DNA from: a virus
Taxonomy: Duplodnaviria > Heunggongvirae > Uroviricota > Caudoviricetes
IMG/VR virus record: IMGVR_UViG_2537561992_000019
Length of the DNA stretch: 17,225 nt
Strand: one strand, 5' to 3'
Below, piece after piece: positions 5,602 to 15,407 of the stretch (positions are counted from its first letter, which is position 1; every line of letters begins with the position of its first letter). The notes under the pieces were generated by a model. That model was given only the letters and a program-made list of their open reading frames with translations. It was not told where the DNA came from and ran no database searches. Both the position numbers and the translations under genes were made by a program.

Positions 5602-5880
5602 TTACCTCCAGATGCGTTGCTGGAATGTGCGGGACGGACGCGGTGGTCGTTCGGAGTAAGGAAGCCTGACGGAGATTATCCAGTGACGATAATCGAGGCT
5701 GAGGGCTTTCTTAATCTCGTATCCGTGTCTGCGGTAGCACTGAATTAGCCACTCGGCCTGTTCTTCAGTGCATGGGGGATGCTGGAACCAGTCAGATTTG
5801 AAAGTGCGGGAACGCCGCCCGTGCCTGCTGGCAGGGGCGGCAGAGTTATCCGAATTGTAAAATTTGGTATCGTGCGCCAT
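5602..5880 (-). CDS. rem: Rem-like small protein, 92 aa
   Basis: ATG at 5880..5878 (MAHDTKFYNSDNS); sits between the DUF968 gene and hok as rem does in Qin (recalled). Confidence 0.5.
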   Translation of the reverse strand: MAHDTKFYNSDNSAAPASRHGRRSRTFKSDWFQHPPCTEEQAEWLIQCYRRHGYEIKKALSLDYRHWIISVRLPYSERPPRPSRTFQQRIWR

Positions 5881-5950
5881 CTGTTTTCTCTGCTGGCGCA
5901 GCAGGTGCCAGTTGTTCAGGCTGACGGATGGATTGTAAACCAGAACGACC

Positions 5951-5979
5951 AGAAAAAACAAAACCCGCCGAAGCGGGTT
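5951..5979 (-). terminator. rho-independent terminator at the 3' end of the hok transcript
   Basis: Minus-strand hairpin AACCCGC-UUCG-GCGGGUU followed by UUUGUUUUUUCU. Confidence 0.55.
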
Positions 5980-6047
5980 AAGTGCGGGTGCGTTGAGGAT
6001 GCCTGACACATCAGCGGTGGCGAGGGATTTCTCCCCCGCCTGGTCTC

Positions 6048-6203
6048 TTACTCCTCAGGTTCGTAAGCTGTGAAGACAGCGACCTCCGTCTGGCCGGTTC
6101 GGATTCGTACCTCGCAGAGGTCTTTCCTCGTTACCAGTGCCGTCACTATGACGGTTAAACAGATGACGATCAGGGCGATTAACATCGCCTTTTGCTGCTT
6201 CAT
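6048..6203 (-). CDS. hokD: Hok-family type I toxin, 51 aa
   Basis: MKQQKAMLIALIVICLTVIVTALVTRKDLCEVRIRTGQTEVAVFTAYEPEE matches HokD/RelF as I recall it; ATG at 6203..6201 with AGGAGA Shine-Dalgarno. Confidence 0.9.
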   Translation of the reverse strand: MKQQKAMLIALIVICLTVIVTALVTRKDLCEVRIRTGQTEVAVFTAYEPEE

Positions 6204-6375
6204 AACCTGCTTCTCCTTGCCTTTCGGCGCGTAAGAGGCTAACCTACGTTTGTGAAGCATAGATTGGGCCTCAGATTAATGTTAAGCGTCTTGCAGGACG
6301 CGTAATGTTAACTGGGGCTTTTCTCTGTCTGCCTTACGGTGGCATGCCCGAGGCAGACAGCCTCAAGCACCCGCA
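6204..6375 (-). promoter_or_regulatory. hok mRNA 5' leader, including a mok-like in-frame start at 6260
   Basis: 5' end sequence UGCGGGUGCUUGAGGCUGUCUGCCUC resembles the 5' end of plasmid R1 hok mRNA (recalled) and is complementary to the 3' end at 5983..5998. Confidence 0.5.
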
Positions 6376-6446: not shown

Positions 6447-6551
6447 TCAGTTCCCCAGGCGCTCCATCAAAAACACAACCAGGCAGTAAACACCCACAAC
6501 AGCAATAACAGCCAGAGCGCCTTCCATTACCAGTGAAATATCATCCGACAT
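6447..6551 (-). CDS. 34-aa hydrophobic peptide (MSDDISLVMEGALAVIAVVGVYCLVVFLMERLGN)
   Basis: ATG at 6551..6549 preceded by GGGAGGG at ideal spacing; single predicted transmembrane helix. Below the ORF-track size cutoff. Confidence 0.4.
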   Translation of the reverse strand: MSDDISLVMEGALAVIAVVGVYCLVVFLMERLGN

Positions 6552-6660
6552 ATTCCCTCCCTTGGTGTGAATCCCGGCGAACGTTTTTACCCCCACCGAC
6601 AAATAACATATACTAGAAAAGCAATAGCTATAGCAACGCCTGCAAATGCATCTGGCCGGC

Positions 6661-7224
6661 TCATTGGTTCTCCCCCTGTGTCGCTTCTACTGCGATCTGA
6701 CTGGCGTATTCGTTAATGGTAACGATAAGTTCTTGCTCGGCCTCATCCAGACAACTACCGATACCTCGCCTGTCCACTTCAGAAGCATCGAAATCTGCAC
6801 GAAGCCTGGCGACCTTCAGGATTGCGGACAACACCTCATCAGGGATTGCCGGAGAGTTGGTTGACGTTTCCGAGATTATCCGAAAATTATTGGTTGACGA
6901 ACCCTTATTTTCCCGAAAGTTTCCAGCCTGAAGCATGGCGGCGCGGTGACACCAGATAATCCAGCCAAGCGCCATATCCCATGCCATGTATTCTCTATCG
7001 CCATTTTTTGCTCTGCGGCGATCTACAGATTCCCCGAAACGCTTCTCCATAAATAATTCATAGGCTGCCCGTTCATCCGATACTGATGCCAGTGATGCCA
7101 GTGCAATTTTTAATGCGGTAAGCATGTTGTTTTGATCTTCATCGAGTCCGAACGGTATTTCATCCCGTGATGACTCAATTCCGGTAATCGTGTACTGTAG
7201 CCATTCTTTGGTTAATTCAGTCAT
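6661..7224 (-). CDS. hypothetical protein, 187 aa, acidic, predicted helical
   Basis: ATG at 7224..7222; GC hairpin ACCGCCC-TTTC-GGGCGGT at 7234..7251 just upstream. No recognisable motif. Confidence 0.6.
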   Translation of the reverse strand: MTELTKEWLQYTITGIESSRDEIPFGLDEDQNNMLTALKIALASLASVSDERAAYELFMEKRFGESVDRRRAKNGDREYMAWDMALGWIIWCHRAAMLQAGNFRENKGSSTNNFRIISETSTNSPAIPDEVLSAILKVARLRADFDASEVDRRGIGSCLDEAEQELIVTINEYASQIAVEATQGENQ

Positions 7225-7350
7225 TTTTCACTACCGCCCTTTCGGGCGGTCTCCTGATGTTCTGAGGGTGCAGGAATCCCTCCGGTTAAGGATTTAATAA
7301 AAATCATTTCTGATTTAAATTTTCAGTGTTTAGTTGTTGGTTTATAGCCT

Positions 7351-7662
7351 TTATGCTTCGGCCTTATTTCTCAGCCATACACAAACAGGACCATCTTCGG
7401 TGTCATGTATCGAACCGATAAACCATCCCTCACCTTCTGGTCGCTCAGGTTCCCATGCTGAAATATCAGGGCCATCTGCGTCCAGATTAAAATCATCTTC
7501 ATCCATACTACGGATAGCCCACTGAAGATTATTTTTCTCCATCCAGGCGTTAAACTCTTCCGTTGAAATATATTCCCGACCATCACAGAATTTTTCATAT
7601 TCAGGATGCGTCCAGCAGCCATATTCATTACGTTCCACTGGCATTTCTTTAATTGCGCTCAT
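7351..7662 (-). CDS. hypothetical acidic protein, 103 aa
   Basis: ATG at 7662..7660 preceded by AAGGGGGG; ATGA overlap with the upstream gene stop. Confidence 0.6.
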   Translation of the reverse strand: MSAIKEMPVERNEYGCWTHPEYEKFCDGREYISTEEFNAWMEKNNLQWAIRSMDEDDFNLDADGPDISAWEPERPEGEGWFIGSIHDTEDGPVCVWLRNKAEA

Positions 7663-7847
7663 TTACCCCCCTTATTTAATTTTCTACGACACTTTTTACA
7701 ATCATCTGGACTTTCGAATGTATCCGGCTCACGCTCATTGCCAAAATACATCCACCCACCGCAAGTACTTGTTATTTCACCTTCAGCAAAATAATGATGC
7801 TTTTTCGCCATAAGTGGCCTTGCCCAGCCCGGATTCGTTTTACTCAC
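7659..7847 (-). CDS. hypothetical small Cys/His-containing protein, 62 aa (GTG 7847) or 50 aa (ATG 7811)
   Basis: CGG...CKKC plus HH residues suggest possible metal binding; overlaps both neighbours. Confidence 0.5.
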   Translation of the reverse strand: MSKTNPGWARPLMAKKHHYFAEGEITSTCGGWMYFGNEREPDTFESPDDCKKCRRKLNKGGK

Positions 7848-8200
7848 TTGTTGCCTCCTTTGCGAAGCTCTGCGACTAACTCGTCACATATGTGCGTCAA
7901 AGAGCAAAGTTTGATTGCTGGATGTTCGCGCACCATCTCCACACCCTGCGCCCGCAATTCTGCCAGAAAAGCGTAGGGGTCAGTTTTTTCACTGTGGTAC
8001 ATGGCATCATAGATAATCATTGCAGCGACACCTGCCTGTCCTGCATCTGTGACGGATATATGCTCAAGGGCTACGGCCATTGCGTGTTTCAACCTCTCAT
8101 TTTCCACCTCAAGCACCACACGATTAGCCTCCAGCTCTTCTATGCGTTTTTTTGCTGCTCCCAGCTCAACACGCAGCTCCTGATAGTTAATCTCGCTCAT
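7844..8200 (-). CDS. hypothetical protein, 118 aa, N-terminal coiled-coil-like segment
   Basis: ATG at 8200..8198 preceded by GGGAGGAAGGAGA; heptad-like LRVELGAAKKRIEELEANRVVLEVENERLK. Confidence 0.6.
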   Translation of the reverse strand: MSEINYQELRVELGAAKKRIEELEANRVVLEVENERLKHAMAVALEHISVTDAGQAGVAAMIIYDAMYHSEKTDPYAFLAELRAQGVEMVREHPAIKLCSLTHICDELVAELRKGGNK

Positions 8201-8421
8201 TCTCCTTCCTCCCGCACTGCTGTTTTATATGCCCGAAGCACATGCGATGTTTTTCCTGACACAGTGCTTCTCAGAAAGAAAATTCCACTGGTGTTTATTA
8301 CCAGATACGGGTCAGCAAGACGCAGCATATCCAGTATGTGATTATGTTTTCTTGTTTCCAGCACCGTACTGGAAATAAGCATATGTGACACGGGGCCGAA
8401 ATCATGATATCTGATTTTCAT
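8197..8421 (-). CDS. hypothetical protein, 74 aa
   Basis: ATG at 8421..8419; stop overlaps the downstream start (ATGA). No motif recognised. Confidence 0.5.
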   Translation of the reverse strand: MKIRYHDFGPVSHMLISSTVLETRKHNHILDMLRLADPYLVINTSGIFFLRSTVSGKTSHVLRAYKTAVREEGE

Positions 8422-8442
8422 ATCATCACCCTGCTGTAAAAA

Positions 8443-9141
8443 TTACCCGTTATCTCCTGTCGTTATTTTCTGTATGACATCACGATGCTTATTAATTTCC
8501 CGCAGCGCGGCGCATAAGCGCTCCCACTTCTGAACCTGACCTTTTGCCCGGCGCAGCTCGCGGTTAGCCACATGCAGCGATGGTAAAATCAGACCATCCG
8601 GATGCTTTCTGATGAACGACGACTGTGACTGCACTGTGACCGCCACACTTTCAGTTTTAATTTCTTCCTGTGTTTCCGCTTCCCGGACTGGTAACGCAAC
8701 ACCTGCCGGCTGAGGAAAGGCTTTACCATCGGTTTCCGTTACCGATGCAGCTTTCGGCTCTGCCGGTAAATTATCGCCCGGTATGCAGTAACGATATTGA
8801 CCGTCCTGATTTACGCGAATCAGACGACCTTTGCTGACAGCCATCGCCAGTGATGAATTCGCCCGGCGGGAGGTAATCCCGAACATTAACGCCAGTTCGT
8901 CAGCCGACTGAGGACCATGCTGTTCAATCGCGTTAATCAGCATCTCTGCAGTGGTTTTTGGGGCCGCTTCAGTTGCCTCACTCGTCAGCCACCACATCGA
9001 CCCCTTGTTATCAGCTTCGCCACGACGCTTCAGCTTCCAGAGTTCGGTAACAGCATCGTCACGGCTGATTTCAAGACGGGCTGCAATCTCGTGCGACGAG
9101 GCTTTTTTCAGTGCTTTCAGTGCGTCAAAAACGGTTTCCAT
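8443..9141 (-). CDS. hypothetical phage protein, 232 aa, with two winged-helix-like segments (possibly DUF1627-like)
   Basis: ATG at 9141..9139 preceded by GGGAGG; the track ORF starts 22 codons upstream without a Shine-Dalgarno. Confidence 0.6.
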
Positions 9142-9175
9142 TAAATTTTCCTCCCGGTAAAAATTACTTCTCAAC

Positions 9176-9838
9176 TCAGACAAAACCGGCCGCCTTCCGG
9201 CGCTCATATTCCTGTTTCAGCAATTCAATTGGCGTTGGCCCTGGCGGGCGTTTGGGTGCTGCCAGTTGTCGCCGGACTGGCGGAACACTGAGGCCATTAC
9301 CAACATGCTTTGCCCATTTCGTCAGCTGCCTTTCCACAAGCCGTTTTAACTCCCCTTCGGTCATCTGGCGCTCAATCCCCTTTGAACGCATCTCGAGGCA
9401 AATGTGGTACAGCACCGGCTGTGGCCACGGGTATTTATCACTCCCGTCGTACCGCCAGGATTCATTCCTCCAGCGACGGTATTCCTCCATCACGGCATCC
9501 ACCGTCAGGCCAAATGGATTTGCCCCGCTCTCCGAAATCAACGCCACAAACTCAGCCAGATCCGGAGGCCACGTTTCACCCGCCCGGCAGCGGTCCATGC
9601 ACCGACGGCAGATCTGCCGGATTTGCTGTTCAGTCATCGCGCCAATCTGAGCAATCCAGAGTTTCGACGGCGCAGCCCCGTTCTTCTGAGTCCAGCGGTT
9701 CGAATACACCTCCCCCATAAGCTCCCACAGCTTCCAGGCCGTTTCCGTTGCTGATAAATCCGTTTTCACGTTCCCACTGTTCGCGTGCAGCCCGGATTTC
9801 CTGAACTGCCCGTGATGCGGTGCCACCTGGTGCTGCAT
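9176..9838 (-). CDS. replication protein P-like (helicase loader), up to 220 aa
   Basis: C-terminal half resembles lambda P as I recall it ([17 protein letters not shown] vs ESYPWKSNAHYWLVTNLY). ATG 9838 has AGGGGG upstream; alternative starts at 9718 and 9637. Confidence 0.65.
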
Positions 9839-11307: not shown

Positions 11308-11350
11308 TGAGGTGTACTGGCAATAGCGGACACTACCATTTGTTCTTTTT

Positions 11351-12255
11351 TTAAGCAGCCATCTGATGATATTTTTCCCTGAAGGCTGCCGGGGAGATAT
11401 TCCCCAGACGAGAGTGACGACGCTGACGATTGTAGAAAATCTCAATGTATTCCCGTATTACTGAGATGGCTTCATCCCGGTTATTAAAACGATAGTGGCT
11501 CAGGCTCTCATTTTTCAGCGTTCCCCAGAAGCTTTCCATCGGAGCGTTGTCGTAACAGTTACCTTTACGCGACATTGATGTTTTCAGACCAAACTGCTCC
11601 TGTATGACCCGGTAATCGTATGCGCAGTACTGTGAACCTCGATCAGAGTGGTGGATTAGCCCGGCAGGTGGGCGCTGGCTCCTGAGCGCCATAAACAGAG
11701 CTTTACCTGTCAGCTCTTTTGTCATGCGCTCTCCCATGGCGTAGCCGACAATTTCGCACGTATAAACATCTTTGATGCCAGCGAGGTACAACCATCCCTC
11801 CTGTGTGGCAACATACGTCAGGTCCGCCACCCAGACCTGATTTGGTGCTGTAGGAGCGAACGTCTGGTTCAGCAGATTTGGCGCAACTGGCAGATTGTGG
11901 TTCGAGTTCGTAGTCGCTCTGAACTTGCGTTTCTGCTTACAGCGTAGCCTTAGCTCCTTACGAAGACGTGCCAGTCGGTCACGACCAACGATGATGCCAT
12001 TCTCTGCCAGCTCCGTCTGGAGCCGCCGGGTTCCATATGTTTCGCGAGTGCGGATATGTGCCACCTTAATCTCCAGTTTTAGCCGCTCATCACTTTGTTT
12101 CTGTCTGAGGGTTCATGCTGTACCCAGTTGTAATAACCGCTCCTGGATACACCAAATACCTGACACATCGCTTCAATGGGAAATTGTTGTCGCCATTGTT
12201 CGATTAACGCGTATTTTTCAGCGACTCCTGTGCAAAATACGCTGTTGCTTTTTTT
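11351..12255 (-). pseudogene. IS3-family transposase orfB, frameshifted by a 1-bp deletion
   Basis: TTT at 12098..12100 where copy 2 has AAAA at 14086..14089, truncating the OrfAB frame. Confidence 0.7.
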
Positions 12256-12506
12256 AATATATCTCGCTCAAGGCGAGCTTCATTTAACGCCTTACGCAGT
12301 TGCAGAATTTCAGATTCCAGTTCAGCCACCGTGCGGGAACCAGGAGTACCGAGCCCTTTTCTGGCGGCGGTAACCCATTGTCCTAAAGTGCCTTCAGGAA
12401 GAGATAATCGGGAAGCGCCTTCACTGATCGAAAGTTGATTTTCAAGAACCGTTCTGACAGCTTCGGCTTTGAACTCTTTAGAGTAACGTTGGGTTTTTCT
12501 GCTCAT
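12204..12506 (-). CDS. IS3-family transposase OrfA, 100 aa
   Basis: Protein identical to OrfA of copy 2; HTH-containing N-terminal transposase part. Confidence 0.85.
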   Translation of the reverse strand: MSRKTQRYSKEFKAEAVRTVLENQLSISEGASRLSLPEGTLGQWVTAARKGLGTPGSRTVAELESEILQLRKALNEARLERDILKKATAYFAQESLKNTR

Positions 12507-12698
12507 TATTAGCTCCTTCTGATGCCATTCTATTTCAGGAAGGAGTGTCCGTTAAACTCAGGCTACCTCACTGTTATACAAAGTGTTCCCGCCGTCATGT
12601 TCATACGCCTCGGGCTGGCTACTTAACCCCTGACCACTGCCGGGTAACTCGAGGTATTGCCCGACGTTCTGTGGGGCGAGGTAGGGTGGTATGTAATA

Positions 12699-13615: not shown

Positions 13616-13679
13616 TGAGGTAGCCTGAGTTTAACGGACACTCCTTCCTGAAATAGAATGGCATCAGAAGGAGCTAATA

Positions 13680-13982
13680 ATGAGCAGAAAAACCCAACGT
13701 TACTCTAAAGAGTTCAAAGCCGAAGCTGTCAGAACGGTTCTTGAAAATCAACTTTCGATCAGTGAAGGCGCTTCCCGATTATCTCTTCCTGAAGGCACTT
13801 TAGGACAATGGGTTACCGCCGCCAGAAAAGGGCTCGGTACTCCTGGTTCCCGCACGGTGGCTGAACTGGAATCTGAAATTCTGCAACTGCGTAAGGCGTT
13901 AAATGAAGCTCGCCTTGAGCGAGATATATTAAAAAAAGCAACAGCGTATTTTGCACAGGAGTCGCTGAAAAATACGCGTTAA
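13680..13982 (+). CDS. IS3-family transposase OrfA, 100 aa
   Basis: ATG at 13680 after GAAGGAG; contains the A7G run at 13931..13938 near its 3' end. Confidence 0.85.
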   Translation: MSRKTQRYSKEFKAEAVRTVLENQLSISEGASRLSLPEGTLGQWVTAARKGLGTPGSRTVAELESEILQLRKALNEARLERDILKKATAYFAQESLKNTR

Positions 13983-14836
13983 TCGAACAATGGCGACAAC
14001 AATTTCCCATTGAAGCGATGTGTCAGGTATTTGGTGTATCCAGGAGCGGTTATTACAACTGGGTACAGCATGAACCCTCAGACAGAAAACAAAGTGATGA
14101 GCGGCTAAAACTGGAGATTAAGGTGGCACATATCCGCACTCGCGAAACATATGGAACCCGGCGGCTCCAGACGGAGCTGGCAGAGAATGGCATCATCGTT
14201 GGTCGTGACCGACTGGCACGTCTTCGTAAGGAGCTAAGGCTACGCTGTAAGCAGAAACGCAAGTTCAGAGCGACTACGAACTCGAACCACAATCTGCCAG
14301 TTGCGCCAAATCTGCTGAACCAGACGTTCGCTCCTACAGCACCAAATCAGGTCTGGGTGGCGGACCTGACGTATGTTGCCACACAGGAGGGATGGTTGTA
14401 CCTCGCTGGCATCAAAGATGTTTATACGTGCGAAATTGTCGGCTACGCCATGGGAGAGCGCATGACAAAAGAGCTGACAGGTAAAGCTCTGTTTATGGCG
14501 CTCAGGAGCCAGCGCCCACCTGCCGGGCTAATCCACCACTCTGATCGAGGTTCACAGTACTGCGCATACGATTACCGGGTCATACAGGAGCAGTTTGGTC
14601 TGAAAACATCAATGTCGCGTAAAGGTAACTGTTACGACAACGCTCCGATGGAAAGCTTCTGGGGAACGCTGAAAAATGAGAGCCTGAGCCACTATCGTTT
14701 TAATAACCGGGATGAAGCCATCTCAGTAATACGGGAATACATTGAGATTTTCTACAATCGTCAGCGTCGTCACTCTCGTCTGGGGAATATCTCCCCGGCA
14801 GCCTTCAGGGAAAAATATCATCAGATGGCTGCTTAA
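13931..14836 (+). CDS. IS3-family transposase orfB segment, expressed as an OrfAB fusion by programmed -1 frameshift
   Basis: The -1 frame is open from the A7G run to the stop at 14836; first in-frame ATG is at 14018. C-terminal half has the IS3-family catalytic region (HSDRGSQY, MSRKGNCYDNAPMESFW). Confidence 0.8.
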   Translation, partial: KKSNSVFCTGVAEKYALIEQWRQQFPIEAMCQVFGVSRSGYYNWVQHEPSDRKQSDERLKLEIKVAHIRTRETYGTRRLQTELAENGIIVGRDRLARLRKELRLRCKQKRKFRATTNSNHNLPVAPNLLNQTFAPTAPNQVWVADLTYVATQEGWLYLAGIKDVYTCEIVGYAMGERMTKELTGKALFMALRSQRPPAGLIHHSDRGSQYCAYDYRVIQEQFGLKTSMSRKGNCYDNAPMESFWGTLKNESLSHYRFNNRDEAISVIREYIEIFYNRQRRHSRLGNISPAAFREKYHQMAA

Positions 14837-14934
14837 AAAAAGAACAAATGGTAGTGTCCGCTATTGCCAGTACACCTCACAGCGCAGCAGGTTTTTAGTT
14901 CCGCGACCCGGCGTTAAGGGTAAATGAGGTCAAC

Positions 14935-15349: not shown

Positions 15350-15407
15350 TTTCTGGTGACGTTTGGCGGTATCAGTTTTACTCCGTGACTGCTCTGCCGC
15401 CCTTTTT
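15350..15407 (+). ncRNA. dicF: DicF small RNA (53 nt, 15350..15402) plus its terminator U-tract
   Basis: TTTCTGGTGACGTTTGGCGGTATCAGTTTTACTCCGTGACTGCTCTGCCGCCC followed by TTTTT matches E. coli DicF as I recall it; lies just upstream of dicB. Confidence 0.8.

Follow-up and report, generated by a model that had tools for sequence, protein, structure and literature searches.

Five small genes in a Rac/Qin-like prophage

The window, the whole stretch of 17,225 nucleotides analysed here (Caudoviricetes virus record IMGVR_UViG_2537561992_000019), carries on its minus strand a block of five ORFs at 6661-8421, which we named by the length of their products in amino acids (g74, g118, g62, g103 and g187; Table 1). 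An O-like gene, P and a gene encoding a DUF1627 protein lie upstream of the block, and hok (hokD in the RefSeq annotation) and sok lie downstream of it, in agreement with an earlier reading made from the sequence alone (the sequence-only reading), which had placed the block between replication genes and hok. The DUF1627 gene, the stop codon of which is separated by 21 nt from the start of g74, is the last backbone gene ahead of the cargo and is often found upstream of g103 in viral contigs. According to the coordinates and the sequence, consecutive genes share 4-base overlaps: ATGA between g74 and g118, GTGA between g118 and g62, and again ATGA between g62 and g103. The ORFs, the stop-start overlaps, the hairpin-containing gap and the acidic 187-residue protein that the sequence-only reading had described are all present on the minus strand. 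It had also counted five tightly coupled genes and a sixth one; however, the overlaps chain four genes only (g74, g118, g62 and g103), and no further ORF exists within the block, the nearest ones being the DUF1627 gene and a short membrane ORF. The product of g187 is acidic as described (pI 4.6, net charge -12), and that of g103 is more so (pI 4.2, net charge -16).

Table 1. Positions of the block genes, the junction and the flanking features in the window
Feature	Position	Strand	Description
DUF1627 (YdaW-like) flank	8443..9207	(-)	PF07789 at 3e-78; wHTH-like segments
g74	8197..8421	(-)	74 aa, basic, pI 9.6, phrog_1001
g118	7844..8200	(-)	118 aa, N-terminal coiled-coil-like segment and small C-terminal module
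g62	7659..7847	(-)	62 aa, basic, GTG start, phrog_2358
g103	7351..7662	(-)	103 aa, very acidic alpha/beta protein
Intercistronic junction element	7225..7350	(-)	126-nt gap between g103 and g187; 50-nt core 7234-7283
g187	6661..7224	(-)	187 aa, acidic, modular
34-aa membrane ORF	6447-6551		Nearest ORF on the downstream side of the block
hok/mok toxin gene and sok antisense RNA flank	6048..6372	(-)	HOK_GEF Pfam 3e-23; sok RF01794, 114.9 bits (Rfam)

All five ORFs are intact, have good Shine-Dalgarno (SD) sequences and are annotated in RefSeq, and all five products match PHROG families of unknown function (E-values from 9e-24 to 2e-55). On the basis of the PHROG E-values, the RefSeq annotation and the dN/dS of g103 (see below), we regard the five ORFs as real genes. 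The sequence-only reading recognised none of the products. Searches of the five proteins against NCBIfam and the PDB sequences likewise returned nothing usable, the sole Pfam support was below threshold, and the defence HMMs of PADLOC-DB v2, a check that it had suggested, matched none of the five at E-values up to 0.1. No characterised close homologue was found for any of them, and a literature search by RefSeq accession and PHROG number retrieved no paper on the five genes.

The potC-adjacent prophage of Escherichia coli O26:H11 11368 contains the region at 100% identity, in the order Cro/CI-like, YdaT, O-like, P, DUF1627, five 'hypothetical proteins', hokD, DUF968, RusA and DUF1133. The element that carries the block is thus a lambdoid prophage of the Rac/Qin type, at home in E. 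coli O26:H11. In the strain of the window an IS-flanked inversion splits cro, which is intact in O26:H11 11368, and cuts the early-right genes off from their promoter region, hence this strain may have lost expression from the early-right promoter.

The cargo carried between DUF1627/YdaW and hok is variable, just as the sequence-only reading had supposed for this position: the 80 viral contigs compared here hold many combinations of genes, and the cargo of phage Rac-SA53 differs. This phage shares the backbone and the position (dicC/cro, ydaT, ydaU, ydaV and ydaW upstream, mok/hok downstream), whereas four of the five cargo genes are different, the cargo being lygF, rac19, an Ead_Ea22 protein (ead), rac21 and rac22, the last of which is a homologue of g103 (80% identity). 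The ydaW-hok cargo interval of Rac-type phages corresponds to the nin region of lambda, none of the nin genes of which (ninB-ninH) occurs within the block. The Pas small RNAs were considered as a lead and dismissed: PasA and PasC share the DUF1627/RusA/TerB neighbourhood, yet they adjoin holin/lysozyme genes, outside the region (bioRxiv 10.64898/2026.05.13.724894).

Relatives of g118 and g187

The coiled-coil segment noticed in the sequence-only reading corresponds to residues 4-45 of g118, approximately six heptads in which 83% of the a/d positions are hydrophobic versus 37% of the others, a bias reached by 5% of shuffled sequences. Residues 12-82 align to positions 75-138 of the Pfam profile Ead_Ea22 (PF13935) with 18.1 bits (E-value 0.0041), below the cut-off of 27 bits, and g74, g62, g103 and g187 gave no match to this profile. 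g118 matches phrog_492 (6.8e-24) and phrog_368 (4e-19). An annotated ead/Ea22-like protein of phage ev099 shares, at its C-terminus, 65% identity with residues 54-118; orf91 of D6 shares 57% with residues 37-118, and orf92 of D6, itself a match to PF13935 (5.8e-11), shares 38% with residues 4-88. g118 is homologous to proteins that pass the profile and has the same architecture of a coiled coil and a variable C-terminal module; as far as these comparisons tell, it is a short, putatively coiled-coil relative of the Ead/Ea22 family.

Ead/Ea22 proteins, such as lambda Ea22 and P22 Ead, are early, non-essential and mosaic; a short N-terminal segment and a coiled coil are followed by a swappable small C-terminal domain that is often acidic (PMC10834534). 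Lambda Ea22 is a tetrameric early protein that consists of an N-terminal segment, a coiled coil and a variable C-terminal domain, and the C-terminal domains of Ea22 proteins are mosaic, DUF551 being among them (PMC10834534, PMC7093339). While g118 resembles Ea22/Ead in its heptad segment, its weak PF13935 match and its 38-65% identity to pieces of annotated Ead/Ea22-like proteins, it is much shorter than lambda Ea22 (118 versus 182 aa), and a PDB sequence search (E-values up to 1) revealed no similarity of the solved C-terminal domain of lambda Ea22 to g118 or to the other four proteins. Unlike Ead/Ea22 genes, which are located in the exo-xis region, the block genes follow the replication genes in the rightward operon. 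Lambda Ea22 favours lysogeny (PMC7093339).

g187 is composed of an N-terminal module (residues 1-47), module B (48-100, SDERAAYELF...AAMLQAGN), a low-complexity linker and module C (125-181); phrog_14306, phrog_660, phrog_3323 and phrog_5117 each match a separate segment of it. The relatives of g187 fall into 4319 clusters, which are mostly annotated as 'DUF551 domain-containing' or carry PF04448, and the identity to P0126, P0128, P0131 and others amounts to 72-94% over residues 1-135 or 1-181. P0131 and P0128 contain every module of g187 plus DUF551. The DUF551 domain (PF04448; W..C..RMP ... HWMPLPEPP) is absent from g187, with no Pfam match and with the alignment ending before the domain, and no DUF551-coding remnant was found downstream of the gene. 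The ending of g187 (...TQGENQ) recurs with other N-termini in P0211 and P0122, which implies that this terminus is in use as the end of a module and did not arise by random truncation. EaA/DUF551 proteins (for example, YfdS of CPS-53, Ea22 variant V2 and gp05 of JLK-2012) have the N-terminal module, module B and the linker in common with g187, however, they carry DUF551 C-terminally, whereas g187 stops after module C. Judged by these alignments, g187 is an EaA/DUF551 family architecture minus the DUF551 domain. Its AF2 model (pLDDT 53.6) shows helices only and was too poor for a fold search; the protein is probably all-helical. With respect to DUF551 proteins, the literature gives only the phenotypes of yfdS and of the yfdQRST cluster (PMC10834534, PMC4776307).

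g74, g62, the g103 domain and the junction

The PHROG profile search matched g74 to phrog_1001 at 8.9e-24. Homologues of g74 were detected by tblastn in 102 phage records, including Stx1/2 phages, Fels-1 and Klebsiella prophages, and adjoin xis in the early-left operon; the protein homologue search returned three near-identical proteins only. RKHN, SGK and LRAxKT are the conserved motifs of the alignment. The gene is present in 349 of 5426 E. coli genomes.

g62 (phrog_2358, 4.4e-31) has homologues in 29 phage records, which comprise virulent Wifcevirus-type, Sf11/swi2, Mu-like, Klebsiella and Pantoea phages, and in phage Bas99 the domain forms the N-terminus of a 149-aa protein. It is present in 356 of the 5426 E. 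coli genomes. The 'small Cys/His protein' of the sequence-only reading is g62, with three Cys and two His residues, of which H18, C29, C50 and C53 (C50/C53 being a CxxC knuckle) are invariant across six homologues from unrelated phages. This H-C-C-C set suggests zinc binding by a putative zinc ribbon; the Pfam search of g62 yielded only a chance-level Kunitz match. In RefSeq the gene starts with the ATG at 7811 (50 aa), however, the GTG at 7847 is better supported, since the SD sequence AAGGAGG precedes it by 6 nt and since G7, W8 and P11, which are invariant, are encoded before 7811. A fusion of g62 and g103 elsewhere, hinted at by the lengths of the PHROG profiles (146 and 194), was rejected, as the long relatives of g103 (P0020, P0063, P0081 and others) are without g62.

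Residues G15, H19, F37, W70, G77, W80, F81, G83, I85, H86 and W96 of g103 are invariant, including the motif GWFIGSIHDTEDGP, and the dN/dS of 0.05-0.13 indicates that the gene is under strong purifying selection. The domain forms 956 clusters at 50% identity. Its homologues are carried by temperate as well as virulent phages of Enterobacterales, Pseudomonas, Burkholderia, Vibrio and Acinetobacter, no cellular relative was found, and among the E. coli genomes it occupies 1219 places in 793 of 5426, with up to four copies per genome. The predicted structure is confident (pLDDT 88), and its fold has no relative among the solved PDB structures. In P0246 the g103 domain follows an N-terminus of phrog_492, the family of g118, and in P0300 it is combined with module C of g187; in P0248, P0254 and P0362 it lies at the end of the protein, after long N-terminal regions that open, by eye, with heptad-like charged segments. 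As in Ead/Ea22 proteins, the domain is the C-terminal domain of a protein with an N-terminus of the g118 PHROG family, as well as of other long proteins. The fusion partners are mostly unknown or Ead/Ea22-like; among the 73 multi-domain relatives, three contain a Lar restriction-alleviation domain and one a Tad2-like domain, and these Pfam domains (Lar_restr_allev and Tad2-like) were not found in g103 or g62 themselves. g103 is a widespread portable phage domain, the predicted fold of which is confident and without a solved match. The sequence combinations indicate that the domains of the block are modules drawn from one mosaic pool and recombine among themselves.

The gap between g103 and g187 contains an element with two hairpins, one of which, CCGCCC-GAAA-GGGCGG at 7234-7249 (7 bp if 7233/7250 is counted), ends 8 nt before the ATG of g187. 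The SD sequence GGAG (7251-7254) is directly 5' of this GNRA-loop hairpin (7233-7250). The RNA fold has a z-score of -2.9, and no Rfam match was obtained at E-values up to 1. In 66 of 80 g103 loci the element is 89-100% identical. The conservation stops at the hairpin, and an ATG 5-9 nt on, present in all 16 downstream gene classes, opens several unrelated ORF families. The core occurs in at least 120 viral contigs, flanked by about ten upstream and at least six downstream gene families: the junction joins many unrelated cassettes. Structured ribosome-binding sites with a hairpin between the SD sequence and the AUG are found in genes 38 and 25 of phage T4. The junction is like these sites in that GGAG directly precedes a 6-7 bp GNRA-loop hairpin, with the AUG 5-9 nt beyond, and unlike the T4 sites as described, it also behaves as a recombination junction between cassettes. 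We propose that g187 would be initiated separately at this structured ribosome-binding site, the stable hairpin bringing the distant GGAG near the AUG. Two other candidate roles were discarded. As to an intrinsic terminator, the hairpin is not listed by the consensus scan and the minus-strand sequence after the stem is UAGUGAAAAAUG. The likeness of the GNRA hairpin to lambda boxB was set aside by reasoning alone: boxA is absent at the right spacing, and the element is situated between cargo genes and not after an early promoter.

Co-occurrence of the genes and interpretation of the block

The whole block is found in 344 of the 5426 E. coli genomes, in which g62 and g74 occupy 363 and 349 places, respectively, compared to the 1219 of g103; the near-identity of the block in the 344 genomes is uninformative on selection for the combination. 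Among the 80 viral contigs with g103, the complete block is confined to the 15-16 in which g103 is at least 99% identical. In the 64 diverged loci, where g103 is 83-91% identical, g62 is present in two, g74-like genes in six and full-length g187 in practically none. In eight phage contexts no block gene is accompanied by others, with two exceptions: g103 with a partial g187 in mEp460_4F5, and a g118-like and a g103-like gene 1.6 kb apart in D6. Homologues of g74, of the N-terminus of g187 and of g103 are near int/xis, in the early-left region of Fels-1, CharmingMan, JLK-2012 and mEp460. Outside the near-identical lineage each gene occurs alone, usually in the early-left ea region beside int/xis, and co-occurrence and synteny across diverged relatives do not reveal a conserved multi-gene unit. 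The operon or system of the sequence-only reading is not sustained, as the five genes co-occur only in that one prophage lineage. From its interpretation, the absence of an assigned function and the variable cargo region stand, and the coherent system is left unsupported. By and large the products are ordinary nin/ead-region proteins, an outcome that it had named as speaking against its own proposal: g118 is related to Ead/Ea22, modules of g187 occur in thousands of EaA/DUF551 proteins, and the g103 domain is fused to scaffolds of the g118 family and to module C.

We propose that the block is probably not one system but a series of early accessory cassettes of the Ead/Ea22/EaA type, each of them independent and non-essential. 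Genes of this type are usually located between exo and xis in lambda, P22 and Stx phages, whereas the block occupies the nin-equivalent slot that extends from the replication genes to hok. The genes would be delayed-early and share the rightward early transcript with O and P, and ribosomes would pass from gene to gene along the overlap chain. A tight coupling of four genes could in principle reflect the stoichiometric co-production of partners, which would speak against independent cassettes. Each product would work on its own, binding host proteins as a small adaptor or inhibitor; as the five genes are without a characterised close homologue, we infer this binding from size, charge, the oligomerisation motif and family precedent. 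g118 may oligomerise via its coiled coil and present its small C-terminal module as Ea22 does, g62 may use a zinc-stabilised fold, and g103 may act via a rigid acidic domain with conserved His, Trp and Arg residues. The action of the products would shift host physiology or the lysis-lysogeny decision, or block a host defence.

It is very unlikely that the four coupled genes, with or without g187, constitute one new multi-component defence or anti-defence system the parts of which work together. Co-occurrence collapses beyond the near-identical lineage, host range and genomic position differ gene by gene in other phages, PADLOC gave no match and no enzymatic or NTPase component, which is typical of most defence systems, was detected; all this stands against the overlaps with their strong SD sequences, the location in a variable cargo space, the lack of a known function for any of the five proteins and the adjacency of g62 and g103 that is kept in the diverged loci L023 and L028. 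Start/stop overlaps are the norm throughout lambdoid early operons, so the coupling argues only weakly for a system. Least probable of all, the genes could be decaying remnants, with g187 a truncated DUF551 protein and the block the neutral baggage of a defective prophage. The absence of the domain that most relatives of g187 carry, the inversion through cro and the poor AF2 model would be consistent with such decay, however, it is contradicted by the five intact ORFs with good SD sequences, the reuse of the ...TQGENQ ending, the lack of a DUF551 remnant downstream, the low dN/dS of g103 and the homologues in the plaque-forming or inducible phages mEp460, D6 and Rac-SA53.

Rather unlikely, albeit deserving more weight, is that at least one of the genes, with g103 as the foremost candidate and g62 as a possible one, encodes a stand-alone counter-defence protein, which would inhibit or sequester a component or signal of host immunity as do Ocr, a small acidic phage protein, and the sponges Tad1, Tad2 and Acb2. 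g103 is small and strongly acidic, is subject to strong purifying selection in temperate and virulent phages of several host groups and is without a cellular or solved structural relative, and its two His and several Trp and Arg residues are nearly invariant, consistent with a binding pocket; in addition, Lar and Tad2-like domains occur in its multi-domain relatives, and g62 is found in virulent phages among replication and methyltransferase genes. The anti-defence fusions, however, are few (4 of 73), some of them are possibly gene-calling artefacts, and the majority of the g103 partners are unknown or Ead/Ea22-like. Only as a tentative and doubtful proposal do we put forward g103 as a structurally unprecedented, phage-specific portable domain of about 100 residues that contains two invariant His and a GWF.GSIH.TEDG hairpin and would serve in counter-defence or host takeover as a module binding a ligand or a protein, alone or on oligomerising scaffolds of the Ead/Ea22 type, the adjacent conserved SD-hairpin junction being a cassette-exchange point. 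If this were true, lambdoid prophages would swap such modules through the junction.

We consider the block to be ordinary mosaic cargo without an assigned function, in which the g103 domain and the junction are two modest leads. A candidate 'hidden system' can be struck off. Its tight coupling is usual for lambdoid operons, and the Ead/Ea22/EaA mosaic pool to which the genes belong is well known, though obscure in function. The two leads leave current thinking unchanged unless a function is found. g103, being abundant, constrained and confidently modelled with no solved relative, lends itself well to structural and binding studies on the early phage-host interaction, and the SD-hairpin junction of about 50 nt provides a concrete example of cassette joining, perhaps exchange, in lambdoid prophages of pathogenic E. 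coli.

Gene order, coupling and authenticity of the block genes

The five ORFs of the block, named by the length of their products in amino acids (g74, g118, g62, g103 and g187), lie, like all genes of interest, on the minus strand, in an interval (6600-8450) that is 100% identical to the potC-adjacent prophage of Escherichia coli O26:H11 strain 11368; of 5426 complete E. coli genomes, 344 contain the entire stretch with a coverage of at least 80%. In RefSeq, genes for a Cro/CI-like protein, YdaT, an O-like DnaT-domain protein, P and a DUF1627 protein are followed by five "hypothetical proteins", a 34-aa ORF, hokD, DUF968, RusA, DUF1133, a DNA methyltransferase and tRNAs, an order that identifies the element as a Rac/Qin-type lambdoid prophage. 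The block interval is the counterpart of the lambda nin region. RusA, TerB and DUF1627 together form the reported neighbourhood of the PasA/PasC sRNAs, which are expected near the lysis genes (bioRxiv 10.64898/2026.05.13.724894); four prophage small RNAs of the window match Rfam.

ORFs of the block and its surroundings, and Rfam small RNAs of the window
Feature	Position	Strand	Basis or remark
g74	8197-8421	minus	ORF
g118	7844-8200	minus	ORF
g62	7659-7847	minus	ORF
g103	7351-7662	minus	ORF
g187	6661-7224	minus	ORF
34-aa ORF	6447-6551	minus	between g187 and hok; in RefSeq
135-aa ORF	5602-6009	minus	downstream of hok; RefSeq form 92 aa (5602-5880)
AgvB small RNA	594-655	plus	Rfam
STnc100 small RNA	656-846	minus	Rfam
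sok small RNA	6198-6372	minus	Rfam
DicF small RNA	15351-15402	plus	Rfam

All five ORFs are authentic: each has a PHROG family match (E 9e-24 to 2e-55) and homologues in independent phage genomes, and g103 shows a dN/dS of 0.05-0.13 at a dS of 0.55-1.3. Each starts behind a good Shine-Dalgarno sequence (GGAAGGAGA ahead of g118, AAGGGGGG for g103, and AAGGAGG, 6 nt before GTG at 7847, for g62). RefSeq/PGAP starts g62 at ATG 7811 (50 aa), which is probably too short, because the invariant residues G7, W8 and P11 and the AAGGAGG motif lie upstream; GTG 7847 looks like the true start. The sequence-only reading was essentially correct about the ORFs, their stop-start overlaps (ATGA, GTGA and ATGA, evident from coordinates and sequence) and the gap before g187, which is 126 nt long and contains a GC-rich GNRA hairpin. 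It had counted five coupled genes; four (g74, g118, g62 and g103) are indeed chained, but g187 stands apart behind the gap, and the sixth gene that it had added has no ORF within 6661-8421.

The hydrophobic 34-aa ORF (MSDDISLVMEGALAVIAVVGVYCLVVFLMERLGN), for which no family match was found, goes along with the block lineage, and versions at 47-53% identity occur in a few other loci. The 135-aa ORF matches phrog_1212 over its last 66 residues. Because this longer form encloses a terminator-like hairpin (5979-5962) with a T-run behind it, the 92-aa form is more likely.

Compared to strain 11368, two inverted IS3-family copies (11308-12570 and 13617-14878), encoding OrfA (100 aa) and OrfB (272 aa), flank an inverted 1047-bp segment that carries cI together with the 5' portion of cro. 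The junctions show overlaps of 4 bp, and cro is split. The inversion separates the early-right genes, including the block, from the promoter region, therefore this prophage copy is probably defective.

Distribution of the genes among phages and prophages

Each gene is found without the others in eight other phage contexts. In their early-left operon, Fels-1, CharmingMan and Stx phages carry a g74 homologue adjoining xis. In JLK-2012, a DUF551 protein encoded beside xis begins with a stretch 93% identical to the first 100 residues of g187. Klebsiella, Mu-like, Sf11-like and virulent Wifcevirus-type phages have g62 homologues amid their replication and methylase genes; homologues of g103 occur in mEp460, D6, PY54 and Rac-SA53, as well as in Erwinia, Pseudomonas, Burkholderia, Vibrio and Acinetobacter phages. 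In the Mu-like phage vB_EcoM-689R2 (1489-2680), a protein annotated as TIR-like domain-containing is encoded two genes upstream of the g62 homologue, which is directly followed by a nuclease gene. Rac-SA53 shares the backbone of our prophage (dicC, ydaT, ydaU, ydaV, ydaW ... mok/hok), whereas its cargo consists of lygF, rac19, an Ead_Ea22 protein and rac21, with only rac22, the g103 homologue, common to both. The interpretation of this position as a place where cargo sits was right.

Co-occurrence was scored on 80 viral contigs that carry a close relative of g103. Only those with g103 at least 99% identical, 15-16 contigs, have the block in full; among the 64 contigs with 83-91% g103 identity, g62 was found in 2, a g74-like gene (39-42% identity) in 6, g118-like pieces in about 12, and full g187 essentially never. 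Among complete E. coli genomes, 793 contain g103, at 1219 places in total and in up to 4 copies each, while g62 (363 places) and g74 (349) are essentially confined to the block lineage. Per genome, the median number of places with a g103-like gene is 2 (maximum 4), spread over different prophages of one strain, and 18 places are on plasmids; the plasmid prophage D6 also carries such a gene, adjoining one for a metallophosphoesterase. The parts of a multi-component system should stay together across divergence, and those of the block do not; the new system suspected here is therefore not supported, as its parts dissociate outside the lineage with g103 at least 99% identical.

Protein modules and the junction element

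The g118 protein, with about six heptads in residues 4-45, belongs, judged by its sequence, to the Ead/Ea22 mosaic group as a short member: over residues 4-88 it shares 38% identity with D6 orf92, a true member of PF13935, and over its last 65 residues 65% identity with the end of a protein annotated as ead/Ea22-like. In Ea22 proteins an N-terminal segment is followed by a coiled coil and by an exchangeable C-terminal domain that is often acidic, DUF551 being one such domain, and Ea22 was reported to be tetrameric and to favour lysogeny (PMC10834534, PMC7093339); g118 follows the same plan of heptads and a C-terminal module. The alignment of g187 relatives (4319 clusters, mostly labelled DUF551) reveals cassettes joined at recurring linkers (...ALASLA..., ...AAMLQ.GN... 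and ...PVTPDGW...). The g187 protein itself comprises an N-terminal module, module B, a low-complexity linker and module C, and ends before DUF551, no remnant of which was found downstream; its AF2 model is poor (pLDDT 53.6) and helical throughout. In g62, H18, C29, C50 and C53 are invariant among six homologues from unrelated phages, which fits a small zinc-binding fold, and its domain forms the N-terminus of a 149-aa protein in Bas99. The g74 protein is basic, with conserved RKHN, SGK and LRAxKT motifs.

Of the five genes, g103 is the most informative. Its model, obtained from a 34-sequence alignment, is confident (pLDDT 88, pTM 0.79) and consists of two helices, a single strand and, at the C-terminus, a beta-hairpin with GWFIGSIHDTEDGP. 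A profile search of 1.84 billion representatives yielded 956 g103 clusters at E ≤1e-3; many of the best-scoring 150 relatives are two to five domain lengths long, with the domain at either end. Pfam partners in 73 long relatives were Lar restriction-alleviation (3), Rv2179c-like exoribonuclease (2), and Tad2-like, KTSC and DHHA1 (1 each), most partners being unknown. In one multi-domain relative, P0246, PHROG scans and inspection placed the partner in the g118 family; another, P0300, also carries g187 module C and aligns to both g103 and g187 of the window; in several others the N-terminal regions start, by eye, with heptad-like, charged segments. The three proteins g103, g118 and g187 thus share a common pool of exchangeable modules.

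The 126 nt after g103 (7225-7350) are 89-100% identical in 66 of the 80 loci, in which g103 itself is 82-88% identical at the nucleotide level with near-saturated synonymous sites; the junction element is more conserved than these sites. Conservation stops at the hairpin, and an ATG 5-9 nt past the 7-bp stem then opens unrelated ORFs. The 50-nt core (7234-7283) was found in at least 120 viral contigs of IMG/VR. Upstream of it lie about 10 families, with g103 making up only about one quarter; the families downstream number at least 6 (DUF7167, a DUF4014 membrane protein, EaA-like proteins including g187, a Q-type antiterminator and others). Stem variants are C-to-U changes with G.U pairs kept, or loop changes, with a mismatch in only one variant. 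GGAG lies directly 5' of the stem, and the distance from Shine-Dalgarno to AUG would be about 26 nt unfolded versus about 8 nt folded. The element could be a structured ribosome-binding site, a recombination patch or a processing site; we infer that it is a structured ribosome-binding site, for which phage T4 gene 38 is a precedent, and also a homology patch where cassettes exchange. As a terminator the hairpin was rejected, not being terminator-like, and the element matched no Rfam family.

Possible functions of the block

The absence of a recognised function was borne out: the PHROG families are all labelled "unknown function", searches of PADLOC, NCBIfam and PDB sequences with all five proteins found nothing, a defence signature included, and the sole Pfam match was a sub-threshold one of g118 to Ead_Ea22 (18.1 bits vs a cut-off of 27). 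Gene order, coupling, the independence of the genes and their common module pool are established. In the likely mode of action, the rightward transcript would carry them as delayed-early genes, ribosomes would pass along the chain, and translation of g187 would start anew at the structured site. Every product may work by itself, as a small protein that binds a host protein or ligand, and would affect host defence, the choice between lysis and lysogeny, or host physiology. A counter-defence role of g103 is the most attractive specific idea, albeit a thin one, to which its charge, its breadth across phages, its constraint (dN/dS) and the fusions of its domain to Lar and Tad2-like domains point. 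The block is ordinary mosaic cargo of the Ead/Ea22/EaA type, of unknown function, in which the g103 domain and the junction element are two modest leads.
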